41,554 nt of DNA. Origin: a virus (lineage: Duplodnaviria > Caudoviricetes). The stretch lies in IMG/VR virus record IMGVR_UViG_3300016484_000328, positions 1-41,554 of that record; one strand, given 5' to 3'. Of the stretch, positions 6,793 to 35,531 are shown piece after piece; positions within the stretch are counted from its first letter, which is position 1; every line of letters starts with the position of its first letter. The notes under the pieces were generated by a model. That model was not told the DNA's origin. It was given only the letters and a program-made list of their open reading frames with translations, and ran no database searches. The position numbers and the translations under genes were made by a program.

Positions 6793-6955
6793 GGTGAGGG
6801 GCAGCGCATTGATTTCATTGCGCTTTTTATGGGCCTTGGCGATCCCGGCAGGAATGCAGAAACTGCATTTTAGATAAAGATTTCAATGATATGGTGCGGG
6901 GCATAGACCCGAATTGCCACCAGAAACAGTGAATAATCCTTGTTTTGCCCCTAAC
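6774..6955. repeat. integrase arm-type sites, consensus GGTGCGGGGCA
   Basis: Copies at 6774-6783 (-), 6793-6803 (+), 6893-6903 (+), 6946-6955 (-, degenerate), two on each side of the core. Confidence 0.6.
6837..6855 (-). other. attP: attP core resembling a tRNA 3' end (probably tRNA-Arg)
   Basis: Minus strand reads ATTCCTGCCGGGATCGCCA (T-arm 3' side, acceptor strand, CCA), just downstream of int and flanked by arm-like repeats. Confidence 0.7.
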
Positions 6956-6962
6956 TTTTCTC

Positions 6963-7016
6963 TTGCAATGTGTGCGCAATTGTTGCACAGTATAGATGCT
7001 AACAGAGGAGATACGG
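6963..7016 (+). promoter_or_regulatory. promoter with palindromic operator and leader for cassette 1
   Basis: TTGCAA -35 at 6963; inverted repeat TGTGC-N9-GCACA 6971-6989; leader AACAGAGGAGATACGG 7001-7016. Confidence 0.6.
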
Positions 7017-7018
7017 AA

Positions 7019-7210
7019 ATGCATATTTTTCACGTTGCAATGTTAGCTTTTTCAAAGCTGGAATTGACCGCACAGGTGACTGACGACCCGTCAAAACTCA
7101 AAGATGCCATGCTTGAAACGGCAAAAATTTTGCGCAACGAATGCGAACGGTCAGCGCCATTGTATGGTGAAATGCGTGGGGCGTTGAAGGCGTTAGAATC
7201 CTCCAAATGA
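7019..7210 (+). CDS. small hypothetical protein (candidate anti-defence/Acr)
   Basis: 63 aa, strong GAGGAG RBS, ATGA-coupled to an HTH gene. Confidence 0.65.
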   Translation: MHIFHVAMLAFSKLELTAQVTDDPSKLKDAMLETAKILRNECERSAPLYGEMRGALKALESSK

Positions 7211-7386
7211 TCCCCGATGACTTCAAACGCATCCGCCTTGCCGCTGGCCTCTCTCAAGAAAAGCTGGCGGCGATGATCGGGAAAAGCCGACGCATCATCG
7301 TCTATTACGAAAACGGCAAGACACCTATTCCGTTTCTTGTTGAGAGGTTCATGCTGGAATTGGAGAGAACTCATGACCATCATTGA
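7207..7386 (+). CDS. XRE-family HTH protein (Aca-like), 59 aa; missing from the ORF track
   Basis: MIPDDFKRIRLAAGLSQEKLAAMIGKSRRIIVYYENGKTPIP..., a clear HTH_3 pattern. Confidence 0.8.
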   Translation: MIPDDFKRIRLAAGLSQEKLAAMIGKSRRIIVYYENGKTPIPFLVERFMLELERTHDHH

Positions 7387-7810
7387 GCGCCTAAAGGCTG
7401 CGACTGGACCGGATCGGGAGATTGACGCCCGCATCAAGGCTTATCTGGAGCCAGATTTTCGGTTTATGACATTCCCCGGAGATATTAGAGGCAAGCGCCC
7501 GGCTGAGTATGAGCCGCTCGCCGCAGTAATTAACAGTGCCGGTGATTGGCAGGCGGAGTTTTGGGGCGATGTTGCCAATATTTGTGACGCTGAAAAGTGG
7601 ACCTCCTCACTAGACGCGGCCCTTGCATTGGTAGAGCGGATGCTTGGGAAAACATCGGTCTACATGAGCAGCACAGAGGAAGGTGTATTGGGGGAAAGAT
7701 TCCACCGGGCGGAAATCGGTTCTTTTGGTAGCCAAAGGGCGGCCACTCTTGTTCTTGCCATTCTCTGCGCCCTCTTTACCGCCCTTGAGGCAAAGGAGCG
7801 CAAGCCGTGA
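7373..7810 (+). CDS. conserved-type hypothetical phage protein
   Basis: MTIIERLKAATGPDREIDARI...TSSLDAALALVE; GGAG RBS. Confidence 0.65.
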   Translation: MTIIERLKAATGPDREIDARIKAYLEPDFRFMTFPGDIRGKRPAEYEPLAAVINSAGDWQAEFWGDVANICDAEKWTSSLDAALALVERMLGKTSVYMSSTEEGVLGERFHRAEIGSFGSQRAATLVLAILCALFTALEAKERKP

Positions 7811-7883
7811 CGAAAAGATACCAGCGCATATATCTTTGGCTGCTAATTTCTTGGGCAAATATCGCCCTTGAGGCAAAGGAGAA

Positions 7884-8177
7884 GTGATGGAACACTTAGG
7901 AACGTCACCGAGCGGAAGATACCGCATGGGAAGATATGGTTATGTTGTGGATGAAGATTGGCGGCCTGAAAAATCAGATAGCCATGGGCTTCTTGCAATA
8001 TTCGATGCCTCCTTTGGGAGAATGGCCAACCAGCTAGTTGATAGCGCACTTCCTTCAACCCGCGAATATTGGCGCAAGAAATTCTTTGGAGCGACGGATA
8101 TAGAAGCCGCCGACCCGCGCCCATTTATTGAAGTTTTGGCAAGCCGAACAAAGGACGCCACCCATGCCGACAAATGA
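7884..8177 (+). CDS. hypothetical protein
   Basis: AAGGAG RBS. Confidence 0.55.
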   Translation: MMEHLGTSPSGRYRMGRYGYVVDEDWRPEKSDSHGLLAIFDASFGRMANQLVDSALPSTREYWRKKFFGATDIEAADPRPFIEVLASRTKDATHADK

Positions 8178-8547
8178 AGAGATAGAGGCGCTGGCGATGC
8201 GGCTTGACTACTGCAAAATCCGCTTTGCCAGAGAGAGTGAAGCGCAGGCGGCTATTCGACGCAATGTTGCAATAGATGACGCCGCCGCCATGCTCCGGCA
8301 GTGGATTGCCGAGCGGGAATGGAAGGATATCAGAACAGCGCCTATGGATGGCACTTGGGTTCAATTGCGTGGAGGGTCCATTGATTACGGGTGGGATGGC
8401 AAAACGCAGCCGCCGTATGTGATTGCTCAGTTTATGAACGCGGAATTGCCTGAGAAAGAAGCGTGGATGTTCGCATGGTATGACGGCGGATTTTATGGCG
8501 AATATTGCAGCCCTACGCACTGGCGTCCTGCGCCAAAGGAGGCATGA
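8164..8547 (+). CDS. protein with DUF551-like C-terminal domain
   Basis: WKDIRTAPMDGT...PTHWRP. Confidence 0.6.
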   Translation: MPTNEEIEALAMRLDYCKIRFARESEAQAAIRRNVAIDDAAAMLRQWIAEREWKDIRTAPMDGTWVQLRGGSIDYGWDGKTQPPYVIAQFMNAELPEKEAWMFAWYDGGFYGEYCSPTHWRPAPKEA

Positions 8548-8799
8548 ATGACACGCGATGAAGTGATTGAGGTGATGGCGCGGGCCGCTCTGGACAGCAT
8601 AAACGCAGAGCAGGTTTACATAGGCTCTGGTGACATATCCAATGACATAACCATCGATGGAGATGTTTCTTTTCTGGGCATGGCAACCGCCGTCCTGTCC
8701 GTCATTGAAGCCATGCTCTGCGTTTACCCAAAAGGAGGCATGAATGACACAAGAGCAATTGATTTCGTCAACAAGCCAGAAATTAGCAGATATTGTTGA
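8548..8799 (+). CDS. hypothetical protein
   Basis: AAGGAGG RBS; MTRDEVIEVMARA. Confidence 0.55.
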   Translation: MTRDEVIEVMARAALDSINAEQVYIGSGDISNDITIDGDVSFLGMATAVLSVIEAMLCVYPKGGMNDTRAIDFVNKPEISRYC

Positions 8800-9007
8800 C
8801 CAATATATCCGAGAAAGCGCGAACCCGCCTGAAACATTTGAAGAAATTATGGACTATACGGTGGCCGCCATTGAAGCCGCTGGCTTTGACATTGTGCCAA
8901 AGTCCTCGACCGCAGCATCATGGAAACCGCAGTCGATAGGAACAGCAGATCGGTTTGAAGAAATTAGCAGTAGCCGGATTGTCGCACGCAGCGTTTCGGG
9001 TCTTTGA
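8744..9007 (+). CDS. hypothetical protein
   Basis: AAGGAGG RBS; AAIEAAGFDIVP motif common in phage early genes. Confidence 0.55.
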   Translation: MTQEQLISSTSQKLADIVDQYIRESANPPETFEEIMDYTVAAIEAAGFDIVPKSSTAASWKPQSIGTADRFEEISSSRIVARSVSGL

Positions 9008-9010
9008 AAA

Positions 9011-9340
9011 TCAGCCCTTCACCGCTGCCATAACCGCGTCCATGACGGCTTTCTTGACCTTGGCCACCTCTGATTCACTCAGATCAGCGGCCCTTGCCAA
9101 AACGGCCTCTCTTGGGAATGCAGGGGCCGGAATATCGGCAAAGCGTTCGCCAAGTTTGCCACGCGATTGCAAGAGGCTATATGCCCATTTGAACAAAGCA
9201 GCAGCGGCAATGTTTTCCTTGACCTCGCCAGCGGCTCTAGCCTTGGCTTCCATGGCGTCGAGTTCGGCAAGTTGCATCCTTGCCAGTTCCAATTGACGTT
9301 CGATTTCAGCGCGGCTTTTCCCGGCGTATGGGTTTTCCAT
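9011..9340 (-). CDS. hypothetical helical protein (divergent moron)
   Basis: GGAGG RBS inside hairpin 9348-9368; coiled-coil N-terminus. Confidence 0.65.
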   Translation of the reverse strand: MENPYAGKSRAEIERQLELARMQLAELDAMEAKARAAGEVKENIAAAALFKWAYSLLQSRGKLGERFADIPAPAFPREAVLARAADLSESEVAKVKKAVMDAVMAAVKG

Positions 9341-9384
9341 TTTGTGTCCCTCCTACAGGATTGGAGGGTTTAAGCACTGGAAAT

Positions 9385-9416
9385 GGCTTGATGCAAGTAT
9401 GTTTCAAATATATGGT
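9385..9416 (+). promoter_or_regulatory. promoter copy 1: TTGATG-N17-TATGGT
   Basis: GGCTTGATGCAAG...TATGGT, same elements as 9767-9798. Confidence 0.6.
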
Positions 9417-9422
9417 TTCACG

Positions 9423-9773
9423 ATGGTCGCGCTTCACAACAAAAAACTAACAACGCAGGATGTGTTCCTGGGCATACTTTGGACGGAAAGGCAAGTTATT
9501 GAATTCCGACGTGGCGAAGAGATACGCCTAATAAATGAAGGATATTCGCATATCGAAGCCATTTTGATGGCGGCTGAATTGACAAGGAAGCGGCTGCACG
9601 CGCAACCTAATTTGCGTGCTCGACAGAACGTTATGCAATCGATCAGACCTGTGAAATATGCGCACAGTCTTTCGTTCTCCGAAGAGGAAATCGATTGGCT
9701 TTTGGAAAAACTAGAAGGGGTTAATGACCCAATCGGCGTTGACATTCTAGATAAGATTCGCGCCAAGGCTTGA
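9423..9773 (+). CDS. hypothetical protein, probably leaderless
   Basis: ATG 7 nt after the -10 element; 116 aa. Confidence 0.55.
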   Translation: MVALHNKKLTTQDVFLGILWTERQVIEFRRGEEIRLINEGYSHIEAILMAAELTRKRLHAQPNLRARQNVMQSIRPVKYAHSLSFSEEEIDWLLEKLEGVNDPIGVDILDKIRAKA

Positions 9774-9798
9774 TGCAAGATGGCTTGTGATGTATGGT
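9767..9798 (+). promoter_or_regulatory. promoter copy 2: TTGATG-N17-TATGGT, upstream of the tRNA-like RNA
   Basis: Same -35/-10 as copy 1; predicted TSS ~9805. Confidence 0.6.
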
Positions 9799-9805
9799 TA
9801 TTGAA

Positions 9806-9940
9806 GTGACGGTGACACGGATGGACGTGCAGCTCACAGCGGCAACGCTGGCATATGAAACGGTTCTCTCCACTGGCTGATCACCAGTTATGCCAGCCGA
9901 TCAGAGATGCGCCAGCAGGTATCAAGCCCTGCCCGTCACA
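9806..9940 (+). ncRNA. tRNA-like RNA with expanded anticodon arm
   Basis: Acceptor stem GTGACGG/CCGTCAC + A; D-arm CAC/GTG with GG in loop; T-arm GCAGG-TATCAAGC-CCTGC; ~60 extra structured nt. Confidence 0.6.
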
Positions 9941-10030
9941 TGAGTTCCGGTGAAAGCCGGTAGCATCTGCGATGATCTGGACGGTGGTATGCGCGGAACC
10001 GTTAAAGCATCTGCGGGCACATTAAGAGGC

Positions 10031-10195
10031 CTACAGGTGAAGCCGTCCAGACACCCACCTCCAAACCACCTTTGCAAGCCATTCCATCAAGGCCCTTTGC
10101 CCCGGAATAGGCTTTCCAAACATTCTCAATATGACCAATGCAGCCGCTAGATCAGCAGCAAAGAAGATAGCCGTTCCAACTAGACCATTGCCCAT
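10031..10195 (-). CDS. small membrane protein
   Basis: MGNGLVGTAIFFAADLAAALVILRMFG...; overlaps upstream gene end. Confidence 0.5.
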   Translation of the reverse strand: MGNGLVGTAIFFAADLAAALVILRMFGKPIPGQRALMEWLAKVVWRWVSGRLHL

Positions 10196-10605
10196 GCCGA
10201 CCGCCGATTCTGCCAAAAGCAGACAAACAGCGTGAGCGCTTGGACATGTTGCAGAACTGATAAATAGTTCCAAAAATTCATGCGAAGGCCTAGCCTGATT
10301 TCAGGCGAGAGTATACCCGCGATTGCAAGCCCGTCCAATGCCAGCATGAGAAAGAAACACAGGCCAACCGTTCTCCCAAAATTGGTTTCACTGTATGCCA
10401 GCAGCAGAAGCGCTAGGCCCGTATGGAGCAATGCAAGGGCATGGATTGGATTGTCAAAGACGTGGATGAAATACCTTGCCGCAACGAGATGCACGGCAAG
10501 GAAAAGGACAGTGACATGCCATCGCCATTTCGACCCGCCAAACCAGAAAGAAGCGGCAAAAAGCGCAATGACGATGGTCAGGTCTAGCTTGTCAAAAAAG
10601 GTCAT
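10180..10605 (-). CDS. multi-pass membrane protein
   Basis: Several hydrophobic segments; ATGA coupling. Confidence 0.65.
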   Translation of the reverse strand: MTFFDKLDLTIVIALFAASFWFGGSKWRWHVTVLFLAVHLVAARYFIHVFDNPIHALALLHTGLALLLLAYSETNFGRTVGLCFFLMLALDGLAIAGILSPEIRLGLRMNFWNYLSVLQHVQALTLFVCFWQNRRSAWAMV

Positions 10606-10829
10606 CGCGTGATGTGCTTAACCGCCCACATAACGGCTTCTTCAATCTTTGTTTTTGCCAAAGACAATTCGCGCGATTGCCCCATTCCGTCCACAAGGTC
10701 ATGGAATGATAGGCCCATGTCTTTTATTGACGCCATGTTACCCTTTTCAGCGTCTGAAAGGACACGATACGCATGCCGCATCGTGTTATTAATTACCCGG
10801 TTATCCGAGGTGTTATCAACGGTAGTCAT
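10602..10829 (-). CDS. Acb2/Tad1-like nucleotide-sponge protein
   Basis: YRVLSDAEKGNMASIKDMG...RELSLAKTKIEEAVMWAVKHIT, resembling the Acb2 helical hairpin. Confidence 0.6.
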   Translation of the reverse strand: MTTVDNTSDNRVINNTMRHAYRVLSDAEKGNMASIKDMGLSFHDLVDGMGQSRELSLAKTKIEEAVMWAVKHITR

Positions 10830-10877
10830 TTTATGTGCCTTCTTGGTTCACATTGCCGGATGCCGTCCGACGCGGAT

Positions 10878-11156
10878 TTATTTGCCCGTGCGCGGCCTTG
10901 GGAACGACGCGGTATTATACGCCGCCAATGCAGCCGAGTGAAGCTGTGCAAGTCTCAGCTTTTCACGGGCGTTTGCTTTCATGGCATCGGACAGATTCTT
11001 GCCTGCCTTCGCCGCTGCCGTGGCATCGTAATTGGCCTCGAAAGCCGGGTCCGAAAGCTGGTCGATCTCAGCAAGCAAGACCCCGACTTCCGCCGCTTTG
11101 ACTTCGGCCTGATTAAGCCGGACAGCGATTTCATGTTCAATTTCGATAGGCGTCAT
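10878..11156 (-). CDS. hypothetical protein
   Basis: AAGGA RBS; ATGA coupling. Confidence 0.6.
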   Translation of the reverse strand: MTPIEIEHEIAVRLNQAEVKAAEVGVLLAEIDQLSDPAFEANYDATAAAKAGKNLSDAMKANAREKLRLAQLHSAALAAYNTASFPRPRTGK

Positions 11157-11506
11157 TCTTGTGTTTCCTTTCCATTGGATTCGATTTTCGCAGCGCCGAT
11201 ATTGACGCTTACGTCTGCATGTTCAATTCGCCAGAACACCACTTTCAACAGCGGCTCGACAAGGAATCCGCTCAGGAAACATGCGGCGGCAAACACCCAT
11301 ATTTCATTCAATATCGCCGGAAAGACGACTGTTGACGCAACAATAGCGCACCAGCCAACAATACCAGAAACAACCTTTTGCGTGAAGGTCTTGAGCCGGT
11401 AATCCCCATCCGCGACCCATCGGGCTACCCCGCCCGCAACAGCCGCACCGCCTGCATATGCAGCCGCTTTCCCCGATAGCATCACTTCGATTCCTTCCAT
11501 TTGCAA
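11153..11506 (-). CDS. membrane protein, possible second holin
   Basis: Three hydrophobic segments and charged C-terminus, at end of lysis cassette. Confidence 0.55.
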   Translation of the reverse strand: MQMEGIEVMLSGKAAAYAGGAAVAGGVARWVADGDYRLKTFTQKVVSGIVGWCAIVASTVVFPAILNEIWVFAAACFLSGFLVEPLLKVVFWRIEHADVSVNIGAAKIESNGKETQE

Positions 11507-11679
11507 AGCCTTTCGCCCTTTTCATTCCTGTCTAGGATGCGCCGCGCCGTGTCGGCTGGCAGGGCGTCAATCTGTGATGCTGTCAGATATTCAGGCCGTT
11601 CAATCTGGCAGAAGTTGCCGCCTGTGGTTTGGCAAGCGGAAACCATAATCATGAGTGCAAGCGCTAGAGCTTTTGCCAT
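11482..11679 (-). CDS. o-spanin (Rz1-like lipoprotein)
   Basis: Lipobox VSA-C; overlaps i-spanin end. Confidence 0.7.
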   Translation of the reverse strand: MAKALALALMIMVSACQTTGGNFCQIERPEYLTASQIDALPADTARRILDRNEKGERLCKWKESK

Positions 11680-11900
11680 TTTGCCTTGAGCCTTTCCTTT
11701 ACCTGTTCATCGGAAAGACGGGCGTTGTCCGCCTCAATCGTGCGGGCCGTGTCGGCAGATTTTGCATCCTTGGCAATCTGGTTATCCCGGCCCGCCTTGA
11801 ATGCAGAGCGATAGGCCGTAAAGGCCGCTGTAAGCGTCACCAGAGCGAGGGCAATGTATTTACCGAGTGCTGAGGTCAGGAAGGCGAGAATGGCGCTCAC
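11664..11900 (-). CDS. i-spanin (Rz-like)
   Basis: N-terminal TM segment plus helical periplasmic tail; precedes lipoprotein. Confidence 0.65.
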   Translation of the reverse strand: MSAILAFLTSALGKYIALALVTLTAAFTAYRSAFKAGRDNQIAKDAKSADTARTIEADNARLSDEQVKERLKAKWQKL

Positions 11901-11901
11901 G

Positions 11902-12114
11902 TCATTTCACCGGGGGCTGTTCTTTGGCCAGCCCTGTGAAACCATCACGGGCGACGTTCACAAGAATCTTGGCGAGGCCGAGTGCGGACACAATTTTGAG
12001 CGCATTCTCAGGGCCGACAAGCGGCATCCAGTCGAGTGTTTCAAGCGCGGGAAGTGCTACAATCGCCACGTTCAGGACGTTGTGCAGCAAGTTGGTGTTG
12101 AGCCATTTGGGCAT
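11902..12114 (-). CDS. holin-like membrane protein
   Basis: 70 aa, two TM segments, downstream of endolysin. Confidence 0.55.
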   Translation of the reverse strand: MPKWLNTNLLHNVLNVAIVALPALETLDWMPLVGPENALKIVSALGLAKILVNVARDGFTGLAKEQPPVK

Positions 12115-12125
12115 GGGAATTTCCT

Positions 12126-12155
12126 TTGCTAGTTGGCACTAGTTTTTGCTATACT
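12126..12155 (+). promoter_or_regulatory. promoter antisense to the late operon, with palindrome
   Basis: TTGCTA-N18-TATACT; CTAGT-TGGC-ACTAG at 12129-12142. Confidence 0.5.
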
Positions 12156-32127: not shown

Positions 32128-33486
32128 CTACAACCTAATTCGTGTCGTGTTCCGAGGCTCAGGAGCGCCGGGAATGAATACTTGTTCGGGCCTTGCCAGC
32201 GGCTTAGGCTTCGTGTCTGTCTCTGGAATGTGCCGCCATGAAAGCGCCATGTATCGAAAAGCATCAGCCAAGTGAGAAGTCCAATCATGAACTTCTGTCG
32301 GCCTGAATGTCTTCTTTTCATCATCCCATTCGCGCCGGTATTGTTCTAGCGCTGAAATGCCTATGTCCTCAGTGCGAGGATGAAACACGCACCGCGAGAG
32401 CGTTGAACGCGCTGCCTGTATGCCATCCATCTTTGATACATTCGCCACTAGCTGCGGGTTAAGCCCGTGCTGCCTCATGGCTTCAAGGCGCTGTGGAGCG
32501 CCGGTAACAGCCCAAACCCTTTGCTTGGCATCATGCGGGACAAAATCAACACCACGCTTCCAAGGCTTTGCGTGGCAAATTTCTGCGAAATGATCGACAC
32601 CAGCGCCGGATGCTGAATAGCAATCGAGAACCAAAACCTGTGTGCCGACAACCTGAAACCACCAGATTGACGTGTCGTCTCTTACGCCAATATCCCAAGC
32701 CGTATGCACCGGCCTATCCGGCTCAGGCTCAATTTCGAGGATTCGCCCTTCATTGCGAACCGCCAGCATTTCCCTTGCATAGAAAGCGCCCAAGATTGCG
32801 GCGTTGAACGAGCAAAGATATTCCTGCTCAAACTGCGCCCTGCCCAAATCCTCGCCATAGAGCGCAACATATTCGCTTAGGCTTTCTTCCAATTGCTCAG
32901 GAGACAAAGCCCCTGTGTCATGAACGTTGCTGACTTCGGCAAACCAGCGCGGGTTGTCCTTTGCCATCTGATACATGGCATAAGCATGGTTGCGCCCGCG
33001 AGGCGTCGTGATGAACGCTGCCCAACCTTGGTTTTCCTCAAGCATCGGGCGGTGATATGCCCATGCACTCGGATTAGCCAAAGCCCACTCTGAATAGGCA
33101 ATGCCAGCAACGCCAGCGCCTACAGTAGCGTCAAACCTGTCTGAACCGATAATCTGCCATGTTGACCCGCATTTGAGGCGGATGAACATTTCCTGATCAT
33201 TGCGCGTCTCACAAATCTCAGGCGGAAAGGCTTCATCAATGCGGCGCTTGCCTGTATGTGCATTAACCGCTGTCCACAATGCCTTTCGCCCTTGAGCGTA
33301 TTCAGGAAGGCAGTGCCAATATGAACCAATGCGCTTATGAGCAAGTTCACATGTTGCGGCTAGGACGATTTCATCCTTGCCCCATCGTCTGTGCGCAATC
33401 TCAATTGCGCGGGCGTTCGGTGTGTTGACTAGGTATTCATGGAACGGGCGCTGATACCAGCGAATGCGACGTGTGAACGTTGTCAC
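32128..33486 (-). CDS. terL: terminase large subunit
   Basis: HRRWGKD Walker A; TTPRGRNH; AWDIG nuclease motif; HDWTSHLADAFRY. Confidence 0.92.
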   Translation of the reverse strand: MTTFTRRIRWYQRPFHEYLVNTPNARAIEIAHRRWGKDEIVLAATCELAHKRIGSYWHCLPEYAQGRKALWTAVNAHTGKRRIDEAFPPEICETRNDQEMFIRLKCGSTWQIIGSDRFDATVGAGVAGIAYSEWALANPSAWAYHRPMLEENQGWAAFITTPRGRNHAYAMYQMAKDNPRWFAEVSNVHDTGALSPEQLEESLSEYVALYGEDLGRAQFEQEYLCSFNAAILGAFYAREMLAVRNEGRILEIEPEPDRPVHTAWDIGVRDDTSIWWFQVVGTQVLVLDCYSASGAGVDHFAEICHAKPWKRGVDFVPHDAKQRVWAVTGAPQRLEAMRQHGLNPQLVANVSKMDGIQAARSTLSRCVFHPRTEDIGISALEQYRREWDDEKKTFRPTEVHDWTSHLADAFRYMALSWRHIPETDTKPKPLARPEQVFIPGAPEPRNTTRIRL

Positions 33487-33758
33487 GGTTTGTTTTCGTA
33501 AATGGTCTGGAATGCGATGCCAATCGGCCCGCCTCCCTCGCCAGAAACTTGCAGCGGCAATAGCTTCGGATAGATGGTTGCCCAGAATGCCCGCTCATTC
33601 AACGGGTCTTCCTTTGCCCAATTCACAAGTCGTTCAGAACCGCCCAATGCATCAGCAGCTTCTGCAATAGCATCCTTGGCGGCTTTACCAATCTTGTTTG
33701 GGCTTCCTTTTGGACGCCCGCCTTTGTTTTTAAGGTTTCCGTCCGTTATTAAACTCAT
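33483..33758 (-). CDS. terminase small subunit-like protein
   Basis: GGRPKGSPNK motif; immediately upstream of and overlapping terL. Confidence 0.65.
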   Translation of the reverse strand: MSLITDGNLKNKGGRPKGSPNKIGKAAKDAIAEAADALGGSERLVNWAKEDPLNERAFWATIYPKLLPLQVSGEGGGPIGIAFQTIYENKP

Positions 33759-33803
33759 GTCGTGTAACCTTCATGCGGTTTGAGCGCTATGAAACAGCCT
33801 AAT

Positions 33804-33921
33804 TCGCACATTTGCGATATAAGCCCGCGATTTTCTGCATTATTGAGATATTTTCTGCAAATACCCTGTTGACATGTCGCATATTTGCGATATAGTAGGG
33901 ACATCAACAGAGGAGATACGG
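33804..33921 (+). promoter_or_regulatory. strong promoter with two palindromic operators and leader for cassette 2
   Basis: TTGACA(33869)-N16-TATAGT; TCGCAYATTTGCGATATA at 33804-33821 and 33877-33894; AACAGAGGAGATACGG 33906-33921. Confidence 0.75.
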
Positions 33922-33923
33922 GA

Positions 33924-34118
33924 ATGACCAAGATCAACACAGAGATTCAGTTTTGGGCGGACAAGGCGGATGCAGCACACGCTAAACTTGGCAAATTGGT
34001 CAAGCGCTATGAAAACGCGACACCTGAAAACTACCAACTGCTTCTCTCTCAAATCCATGAAGCCGAAAAAGACATTGAACTTTTTGAGGCAAAATTTGAT
34101 GAATTGATGGTGGCATAA
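33924..34118 (+). CDS. small helical protein (candidate anti-defence/Acr)
   Basis: 64 aa, GAGGAG RBS. Confidence 0.7.
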   Translation: MTKINTEIQFWADKADAAHAKLGKLVKRYENATPENYQLLLSQIHEAEKDIELFEAKFDELMVA

Positions 34119-34358
34119 ATGCTGACTTCAGAAGAAATAAAAACCCACGTTTTCAATCAGCTTTTATGGTACGCCCTTCTCGCCGAGAATGAAATGAATT
34201 TCAAAGAAGCTGAAGAATTTGCGCAAAGACACCTTGTCGATACCCTGTGTGCTTACCTTTCAAGCGCATTGTTATGCGCGGAATTAACCATCGACATGCT
34301 ACCGGAAGAGATACAAAGCCGCGCTGAACGCCAAATTTACAATTGGGGTGGGCTATGA
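34119..34358 (+). CDS. small acidic protein (candidate anti-defence/Acr)
   Basis: 79 aa, Glu-rich, coupled to both neighbours. Confidence 0.65.
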   Translation: MLTSEEIKTHVFNQLLWYALLAENEMNFKEAEEFAQRHLVDTLCAYLSSALLCAELTIDMLPEEIQSRAERQIYNWGGL

Positions 34359-34540
34359 CCCCCACCGAATTCACCACAGCCCATAAGCAGCTTGGCCTTA
34401 GCCGGGCTGCTTTCTGCCGTCTTATTGGTATAGCTCCGAACTCTGGAACCGCATATGCATCAGGCAGGAAACCTATTCCTTTGACTGTTGCTCTTGCTGT
34501 TGCCGCTGTTATGCGGGGCTTGAAGCCTTGGCCTGAGTGA
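34355..34540 (+). CDS. HTH protein (Aca-like)
   Basis: MTPTEFTTAHKQLGLSRAAFCRLIGIAPNSGTAYASGRKPIP. Confidence 0.8.
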   Translation: MTPTEFTTAHKQLGLSRAAFCRLIGIAPNSGTAYASGRKPIPLTVALAVAAVMRGLKPWPE

Positions 34541-34656
34541 ATTGGCGGCGCTGTTATAGGCCGGTTGAACAGTCTGGAGAGGCGGGAGCGGCAAACCCTA
34601 GATGCAATTGTGCATCATAAAAACATGTCCTTTTGAAACTGATTTGCGAGGGTATG

Positions 34657-34905
34657 TCAATAGGGCAGAGCCGTCACAACTGTTTTCCTTAATCGGTCAT
34701 ACACAACTTTCATATCTTTGCCATTCCATCGGACAATGTGATGGCTGCGGGTGTTACTTTCTTTGAAGACATGCGTCGTTTGCCCAGCGCGTACCAACCG
34801 ATTTATGGCGTCTACATCAATTGAATGTTCTCCATATCGCTCAGCGGCCCTCATTGAAAAGTGCTTTGCCTGAATCGCGGCTGTCTTTGGGGGCTTGCGC
34901 CTCAT
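34657..34905 (-). CDS. small basic protein with H-x3-R-x2-ER motif (DUF4258-like)
   Basis: KHFSMRAAERYG...KVVYD...VVTALP. Confidence 0.55.
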   Translation of the reverse strand: MRRKPPKTAAIQAKHFSMRAAERYGEHSIDVDAINRLVRAGQTTHVFKESNTRSHHIVRWNGKDMKVVYDRLRKTVVTALPY

Positions 34906-35531
34906 GCTGCCTTCCTCGCCTTTCCCCGGCTGAAATATTCTGCCAATCCGTTCAGCGCCAGACGCAAATCGCCGACCATTGATGTGAATGATTGATCGCG
35001 GACCACGCAGTAATCCAGCGCGGCAAACAGGTTGCCGTGGCTTTCATTCTGCCGTCTTTGCACTGAGGCTATGGCTTCATTCCAGCGCGTCTTGATCGCC
35101 TGCCAGCGCTTGGCTTGTTCTTCTGGCGTGTCTGTCATTGTGCCGAATGTCGAGCGCTCATATATGGCTTCGCTGCTGCCAATCTGGCGATGATAGAGAT
35201 TGCGCAGTTCGAGATAGCGCAGCCCGGCTTCATATTGCTCTTCGGTCAATCCAATCGGGTCGTGCTTGTCATTGCGGTGGCGTATGCACAAGCGGCCAAT
35301 GAATGATCCTGCTTTCTGGTCTTTCGCATCCTTTGGGGTAAGGCCGAATACCTTGGCACGGAGCTTGAGAGGCTCTTCGTCGGCGGGAATTTCCCTCACA
35401 GATACCGTAGGATTCTTCGCTCTGGAAATCCTGCCATTGGGTTCACGGGCGGCTTTTGACTTCTTGCGTGCCATGATGTGCCTTAGCGCCTTTCCTTGAG
35501 GGTCTGTGACAGGAATGAAATAGCAGGTCAC
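34902..35531 (-). CDS. putative late-gene regulator (Q position)
   Basis: REPNGRISR N-terminus; LRLALNGLAEYF C-terminus; lies before late promoter region; start may be internal (MARKKS). Confidence 0.55.
   Translation of the reverse strand: MTCYFIPVTDPQGKALRHIMARKKSKAAREPNGRISRAKNPTVSVREIPADEEPLKLRAKVFGLTPKDAKDQKAGSFIGRLCIRHRNDKHDPIGLTEEQYEAGLRYLELRNLYHRQIGSSEAIYERSTFGTMTDTPEEQAKRWQAIKTRWNEAIASVQRRQNESHGNLFAALDYCVVRDQSFTSMVGDLRLALNGLAEYFSRGKARKAA

Follow-up and report, generated by a model that had tools for sequence, protein, structure and literature searches.

The stretch of DNA analyzed here (hereafter the window, 41,554 nucleotides) is the entire record of a virus of the Caudoviricetes (IMGVR_UViG_3300016484_000328; 98% complete). 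At positions 33,804 to 34,540 it carries a cassette composed of a fixed frame, namely a strong promoter, palindromic operators and a terminal helix-turn-helix (HTH) gene, which encloses small exchangeable cargo genes. We read it, with a modest preference over other explanations, as an autorepressed unit that makes likely anti-defence proteins. Comparison with related loci revealed conservation of the frame, exchange of the cargo, co-variation of operator and HTH helix, and an antisense position before the putative gene of the terminase small subunit (terS). The cassette family is real, mobile and very probably autorepressed, with a striking positional bias; operon architecture is the sole ground for the anti-defence reading of the cargo.

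The sigma70-type promoter TTGACA-N16-TATAGT (33,869 to 33,896, plus strand) is near-consensus, as a preliminary description of this DNA had stated, with matches at 11 of 12 positions, and is near-identical in the related loci L013 and L051. It was the single promoter-like site in a scan of positions 32,500 to 35,500. Shuffled sequences average 3.0 sites at a looser cut of 9/12 and the promoter count by itself is therefore not significant. The core operator TCGCA-TATT-TGCGA (TCGCATATTTGCGA, 33,877 to 33,890) is located between -35 and -10, and an upstream operator TCGCA-CATT-TGCGA (TCGCACATTTGCGA, 33,804 to 33,817) is found at a distance of 45 bp from the start codon of terS. Their spacing of 73 bp and their identity at 17 of 18 positions, counting the TATA that follows, agree with that description, and its coordinates for promoter, operators and the three open reading frames (ORFs) all proved correct. 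These two are the only exact copies of TCGCA-N4-TGCGA in the 41.5 kb genome, where 0.18 are expected from Markov shuffles, and a 5-4-5 palindrome of any kind repeated within 150 bp occurs once in the window compared to 0.065 times per shuffle. A genome scan for further regulon sites gave one site with a single mismatch (position 729) and 19 sites with two mismatches against 22 in the control; the window genome holds no additional regulon of this operator. The second, upstream copy is common among the relative loci. In variants of run X5 the central spacer of the core operator was altered and the half-sites were intact, and over 42 sites the central four bases were 95% A/T.

The frame extends over a short leader, the ribosome site and the first codons (33,897 to 33,933, plus strand), which are common to loci with other cargo. 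No hairpin was present in the 21 nt leader of the window, and no terminator-like site was found directly 3' of the HTH gene in a scan of the window. In six relatives (L016, L017, L068, L071, L074 and L088) a leader hairpin GGC-AAGGA-GCC of -4 kcal/mol covers the ribosome site, and leaders of the L002 group contain two hairpins; these may parallel the RNA binding of Aca1 and Aca2, two anti-CRISPR-associated (Aca) proteins. A direct repeat, ATTTTCTGCA (33,830 to 33,859, 20-bp spacing), lies between both operators and is partially kept in L013.

The terminal gene (34,355 to 34,540, plus strand) has an ATGA overlap with the preceding ORF2 and encodes a 61-amino-acid XRE-type HTH protein (isoelectric point, pI, 10.4), here regarded as a predicted Aca-like autorepressor. 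In its structure model (predicted local distance difference test, pLDDT, 96) the protein comprises the HTH and one helix, without a toxin-binding extension. For the family, 54 proteins including the query were aligned, and contigs of viral, genome and metagenome origin supplied loci L001 to L107. Loci duplicated with identical flanks were merged into one, and seven without a complete HTH were removed. The HTH family closes short operons in many phage contigs. A search by tblastn of the window HTH against 50,697 GenBank phages gave no match. An operator-first scan of viral contigs yielded eight sites: two had a family HTH downstream, one of these already in the locus set, one was cut by the contig end and five were apparently unrelated. 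Additionally, the family HTH is fused to the C-terminus of a 167-amino-acid protein with the source label GIY-YIG nuclease (P0066), and an Ahrensia metagenome-assembled contig (L049:1450-2019) carries one operator, a frameshifted HTH gene and no clear cargo, possibly a decayed cassette.

Autorepression is well supported by the way in which operator and helix vary together. Operators were scored as present at no more than one mismatch within 1.5 kb upstream of the HTH gene, with at least 400 bp of upstream sequence required; the window, the fragments or miscalls L022, L050, L104 and L106, and two loci with less than 400 bp were left out. Of 31 loci with the window-type helix G-I/L/V-x-x-N-[ST]-G-[TI]-A-Y, 28 carried TCGCA-N4-TGCGA, which was absent from all six loci with an RNMP helix and all 18 others (0/24 together), at a background of 6 sites per 211,040 bp. 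Both helix and palindrome are altered in the three window-type loci without the operator. The palindrome of L026 and L027 reads ACGCA-AATT-TGAGT, and that of the third locus, L081, TCACA-ATTA-TGTGA. All six RNMP loci had GCACA-N4-TGTGC at no more than two mismatches. Recognition of the operator by the HTH is supported since the operator shifts along with the helix in three subfamilies, which is hard to explain otherwise. L081:660-919 holds an HTH without cargo between the gene of the terminase large subunit (terL) and the portal gene, with the helix HQNTG and its own palindrome given above.

In the mechanism proposed here, host polymerase would transcribe the cassette once the phage DNA enters the cell. 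The result would be a short burst of cargo, likely anti-defence proteins, followed by shut-off through the cassette's own HTH; it is highly probable that a dimer of the HTH occupies TCGCA-N4-TGCGA between -35 and -10 and so obstructs the polymerase. Shut-off may spare the converging late transcript that crosses the cassette toward terS-terL, and may keep the cargo quiet in the lysogen.

The cargo is exchanged under this frame. A survey of the genes upstream of the HTH homologues, as suggested in the preliminary description, found varying partners: 51 ORFs between promoter and HTH in 34 relative loci and the two of the window, 53 in total, fell into 39 BLAST clusters. About four cargo calls are probably wrong (L049; two 26-amino-acid ORFs in L078; one frame in L097), which leaves approximately 35 families. 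Near-identity of the window and L013 begins at the upstream operator, spans the ribosome site and ends about 10 nt inside gene 1; their cargo is unrelated, the two are 76% alike from the HTH start codon, and beyond the HTH stop they are unrelated again. With L051 the shared stretch ends six codons into gene 1, and in one more contig of run X5 the same promoter runs into a different gene. Between L002 and L065/L075/L077 the promoter is 98% and the HTH 92-97% identical, whereas the cargo (45%) is unrelated; L002 and L067 share the entire cassette (98/100/90%), yet the terminases behind it are unrelated. Several cargo families recur in separate phages, and L064 holds a cargo remnant only. Since the stretches read in the two nearest cultured relatives by terL showed no cassette upstream of terS (annotation alone covered the final 198 bp in the case of RHph_I3_18), the cassette looks dispensable.

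This exchange bears on a type II toxin-antitoxin module, with ORF2 or ORF1 as toxin and the HTH as antitoxin-repressor. The HTH domains of HigA2 and MqsA as well as NE0471 are among the fold neighbours of the window HTH, and the order of toxin followed by HTH is known from HigBA. However, the one fixed toxin partner that the preliminary description had considered as an alternative was not found; nearly identical HTHs follow unrelated genes from some 35 partner families, the HTH lacks a toxin-binding extension and the cargo has no toxin family match. The free exchange of the genes enclosed by promoter and HTH rules out a fixed pair, and we consider a toxin-antitoxin module very unlikely.

The two cargo genes of the window are ORF1 (33,924 to 34,118, plus strand; 64 amino acids, pI 5.0, ribosome site GAGGAG) and ORF2 (34,119 to 34,358, plus strand; 79 amino acids), which abuts the ORF1 stop. 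Both are candidate anti-defence proteins. They had been described as orphans, which holds for ORF1 with its near-identical twins only, but not for ORF2, to which three remote relatives align from end to end (39-42% identity) and which belongs to a small unnamed family; its acidic nature was confirmed (pI 4.5). Neither protein had a match in PHROGs, Pfam (above noise), NCBIfam, PADLOC or PDB sequences, and searches of viral contigs with ORF1 and ORF2 found no locus. The ORF2 model, built from four sequences (pLDDT 89), predicts three helices. Its best Foldseek match reached E 0.59 in the viral library and its best PDB match Z 6.0 at a root-mean-square deviation (rmsd) of 8, and the absence of a clear match does not establish a new fold.

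The closest characterized architecture is that of the anti-CRISPR (acr)-aca operons, whose defining layout has been described (PMC9410906). The cassette shares with them a strong sigma70 promoter, an inverted repeat inside the core promoter that is often joined by another nearby, small variable genes and a terminal HTH. Likewise, the window HTH is a DNA-binding-type protein ending a short operon of small genes, and its inverted repeat inside the core promoter is conserved in the window-type loci. The cassette differs in its operator spacer of 4 AT-rich bp instead of 1-2 bp, in its fixed antisense place before terS, in its likely alphaproteobacterial hosts and in that the operons examined are without a known acr. 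Searches through Pfam, NCBIfam, PHROGs and PDB gave no known acr gene or homologue in these operons, though no dedicated Acr library was searched and new Acrs would not match. The Aca2 probe is TTCGCA-AT-TGCGAA and the Aca1 probe GGCACA-N-TGTGCC (PMC9410881); the half-sites of the main subfamily correspond to the former and those of the sister subfamily to the latter, with shorter spacers in both Aca probes.

In a profile comparison of the narrow HTH family against PDB, Aca2 was the best sequence match (E 0.0026, residues 1-46, the HTH part), and the near-invariant arginine after helix 3, R38 of the window family, aligns with R39 of Aca2. A broad HTH profile matched many XRE proteins, with NE0471 at the top (E 7e-13), then a designed protein and Aca2 (2e-6), and Aca1 (6e-4) further down. 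The model fold matched NE0471 (Z 10.2, rmsd 1.9, 61 residues aligned), Aca10 (Z 9.9, rmsd 1.1, 54 aligned) and HigA2 (Z 9.6, rmsd 2.2, 61 aligned), which are tied, and further the HTH domain of MqsA. NE0471 matches through its C-terminal HTH (PDB 2AUW), the best match by fold and broad profile, but is a two-domain protein of 170 amino acids in contrast to the 61-amino-acid domain alone. Membership in the three Aca families was rejected: for Aca2 by length (61 versus about 120 amino acids), the missing C-terminal dimerization domain and an operator spacer of 4 instead of 2; for Aca10 by its absence at E<=1 with the narrow profile, a broad-profile E of 0.11 (residues 3-39) and 20% identity in the fold match; for Aca1 by E 6e-4 with the broad profile only and a differing operator. 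The Aca10 operator, AATACGCTCA-T-TGAGCGTATT, is also unlike that of the window. The HTH thus appears Aca-like in regulation and kin to one Acr-linked HTH, outside Aca1, Aca2 and Aca10.

This Acr-linked relative belongs to the Rhodobacter phage RcapNL, whose HTH was matched by a query from the sister subfamily (35%, E 8e-3) and aligns to the window family over 58 columns with 34% identity (probability 94.8%, E 5e-8). The gene before it is AcrIC9, a validated Acr (PMC7391736), and this distant relative is the sole tie of the cassette to a proven Acr. RcapNL is an alphaproteobacterial phage, as the window phage probably is, and in the acrIC9 directon, too, an acidic 79-amino-acid gene is followed by a homologous HTH and one of two palindromes lies between -35 and -10. 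However, the RcapNL operator is GTGCG-N5-CGCAC, its HTH is the middle one of three genes and the directon adjoins an integrase and not a terminase. Although ORF2 and AcrIC9 are both acidic and of 79 amino acids, homology was rejected on comparison; ORF2 is helical. The third gene of the acrIC9 operon, gp31 (L118:3232-3540), encodes a very acidic protein of 102 amino acids which is uncharacterized in PMC7391736. In the Ralstonia phage Cimandef (L119:1749-3237) a distant HTH relative follows five small genes and adjoins an annotated terS in the same direction.

Several results weigh against an Aca-like regulator with anti-defence cargo. The loose GCACA pattern was also present in 6/31 and 2/18 loci of the other helix groups. 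The loci are related and their operator counts not independent, so that a Fisher value of 1e-12 overstates independence. The same HTH domain is also found solo, and at loci whose closest resemblance is to the C-terminal domain of NE0471; by itself it therefore does not prove an Aca function. The acrIC9 HTH is linked (34%) only within the wider XRE subgroup, and its operator differs. Among 38 cargo proteins of relatives one matched Pfam (DUF3560, in L001), none NCBIfam and three PHROGs, none of them anti-defence; the recognized cargo comprises DUF3560 and two PHROG families with unknown function. A PADLOC scan of 43 proteins gave no convincing match, three recurrent cargo families had no PDB relative, and the cargo pI spans 4.2 to 12 and is not uniformly acidic. 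Finally, in run X5 variants, of which 40 of 48 differences were evaluated, ORF1 had 8 nonsynonymous versus 4 synonymous codons, which suggests no clear purifying selection; ORF2 had 4 changed and 3 silent codons, and neither ORF acquired a stop or frameshift.

Of the acr-aca-like interpretation put forward earlier, the regulatory half is strongly supported by comparison, given the co-variation of operator and helix, the Aca10-like fold and the varying partners. The cargo half is still a candidate reading, neither the window's nor the relatives' cargo proteins that were compared having matched any known family of Acr or anti-defence proteins. Fewer than half of the genes regulated by Aca1 and Aca2 have assigned functions (PMC13551039), so that cargo of unknown function is usual. 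By analogy with these operons, it is somewhat probable that ORF1 and/or ORF2 inhibit some host defence, and improbable that they inhibit CRISPR-Cas. The same autoregulated cassette could instead deliver early modulators of host takeover or of the lysis-lysogeny decision, such as proteins that inhibit division, transcription or proteases, with no relation to immunity. Small, early, unrelated proteins behind a strong promoter fit this equally well, as does the lack of matches to anti-defence families. We nevertheless consider it unlikely, as extreme cargo turnover in a constant frame would suit changing targets better than conserved host machinery, and as acr-aca operons are the nearest characterized counterpart.

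Weak constraint on ORF1 could also mean that the frame itself is functional, antisense transcription and HTH binding by terS tuning or delaying late genes or packaging, with largely neutral cargo. The upstream operator is located 6-192 bp from terS in most loci, and the cargo-free HTH of L081 and the remnant of L064 would fit as well. Such a role is highly improbable, however, since three remote relatives preserve the whole of ORF2 at about 40%, several cargo families recur and near relatives are without the frame.

The position before the terminase genes was examined in 39 loci with a placed operon promoter, window included and loci with solo or toxin-antitoxin-like HTHs excluded. In 30 the operon is antisense and no more than 1.1 kb upstream of terS or terL; seven lie elsewhere, one with terS at 1.85 kb and one between terL and portal, and two have too little flank. 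Several terS genes had no Pfam match and were named from position and mutual similarity. With a cut of 40% identity the 17 terL sequences fall into eight unrelated groups, among them gpA, TerL_ATPase, Terminase_3 and Terminase_6N types. In L001, L002, L005, L016, L017, L026, L054, L066, L076, L077 and L078 the cassette is often found between terS and putative DNA-modification genes downstream of the HTH (ParB-methyltransferase, TAGT glycosyltransferase, Mom, PALP).

A cos or pac site lies at or near terS, and packaging proceeds into terS-terL. Because of this direction, and if ejection is last-in-first-out, sequence immediately upstream of terS would enter early, for an antisense operon with the promoter first. 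Against this stand the permuted ends produced by headful packaging and the chance that the slot before terS may tolerate insertions; moreover, either end of lambda is reported to exit first in vitro, at about 50% (PMC10287942). We therefore offer only tentatively the idea of a phage leading region, in which selection holds the cassette family antisense right upstream of terS in temperate phages of likely alphaproteobacterial hosts, the promoter is among the first DNA entering whatever the packaging type, and about 35 unrelated cargo families form an anti-defence library. Leading regions of conjugative plasmids likewise carry variable small genes in one orientation by the start of DNA transfer (10.1101/2023.02.15.528439), and IncF plasmids have DUF3560 in the vicinity of ssb and of a methyltransferase (PMC11781037). 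The cassette differs as phage double-stranded DNA with an ordinary promoter, and first entry of its end is inferred. In the promoter-borne modular shuffling of T4-type phages (PMC2839356) small unknown genes are also exchanged at a conserved regulatory sequence, but the cassette frame includes its own repressor and resides in temperate phages.

The window phage is temperate, with an integrase and a CI-like repressor in addition to portal, head and tail genes. Its terL is 65% identical to that of Rhizobium phage RHph_I3_18 and 63% to that of Bradyrhizobium phage ppBjS10J-1, and because of this resemblance the host is probably an alphaproteobacterium. As described previously, the cassette genes are opposite to their neighbours, all on the minus strand: terL (32,128 to 33,486), the putative terS (33,483 to 33,758), named from its place before terL and matching a PHROG with unknown function, and an 82-amino-acid gene (34,657 to 34,905) which converges on the HTH gene. 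The latter had no family match in PHROGs or Pfam scans; it carries H-x-x-x-R-x-x-E-R at its start and V-V-T at its end, a pattern which we take to be reminiscent of RelE-like small nucleases. Twelve ORFs checked after the integrase (6,914 to 12,132, plus strand) had no PHROG match and mark a second accessory region.

The temperate lifestyle raises the further explanation of a moron expressed in the lysogen, providing superinfection exclusion or anti-phage defence to the prophage-bearing cell at a low steady level set by the HTH. Its own promoter, antisense orientation and lower GC content (0.40-0.49 over the cargo versus 0.54 for the whole phage genome) are moron-typical. However, an operator within the core promoter predicts silence once the repressor is present, and the PADLOC scan brought no convincing match; we regard this explanation as quite unlikely. 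The third-position GC of the cargo (0.45-0.48) is near that of terS (0.49), and composition is therefore weak evidence for recent insertion.

The literature searched contained no description of this HTH family or position, although AcaFinder's predicted families, or supplements to PMC13551039 and to bioRxiv preprints, could hold it. Three family peptides and three operator spellings were all absent from the Shehreen supplement, the peptide result being weak as most sheets apparently list accessions in place of protein sequences, and the accessible part of PMC9765179 makes no mention of Alphaproteobacteria, Rhodobacter or terminase. According to the part available of 10.64898/2026.10.15.759504, the placement of phage anti-defence genes with respect to the end that enters first has not been systematically evaluated. 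The fixed position of the cassette allows a direct test of whether anti-defence genes are placed relative to that end.

HTH and operator together provide a new search handle, as promoter and HTH bracket the cargo exactly. One pass delivered some 35 families of small proteins, almost all of them unannotated, and their host group receives little coverage in the Aca literature compared here. The operator-helix pairs of the three subfamilies constitute a natural specificity series, and the swappable cargo likely marks a pool of candidate proteins countering bacterial immunity.
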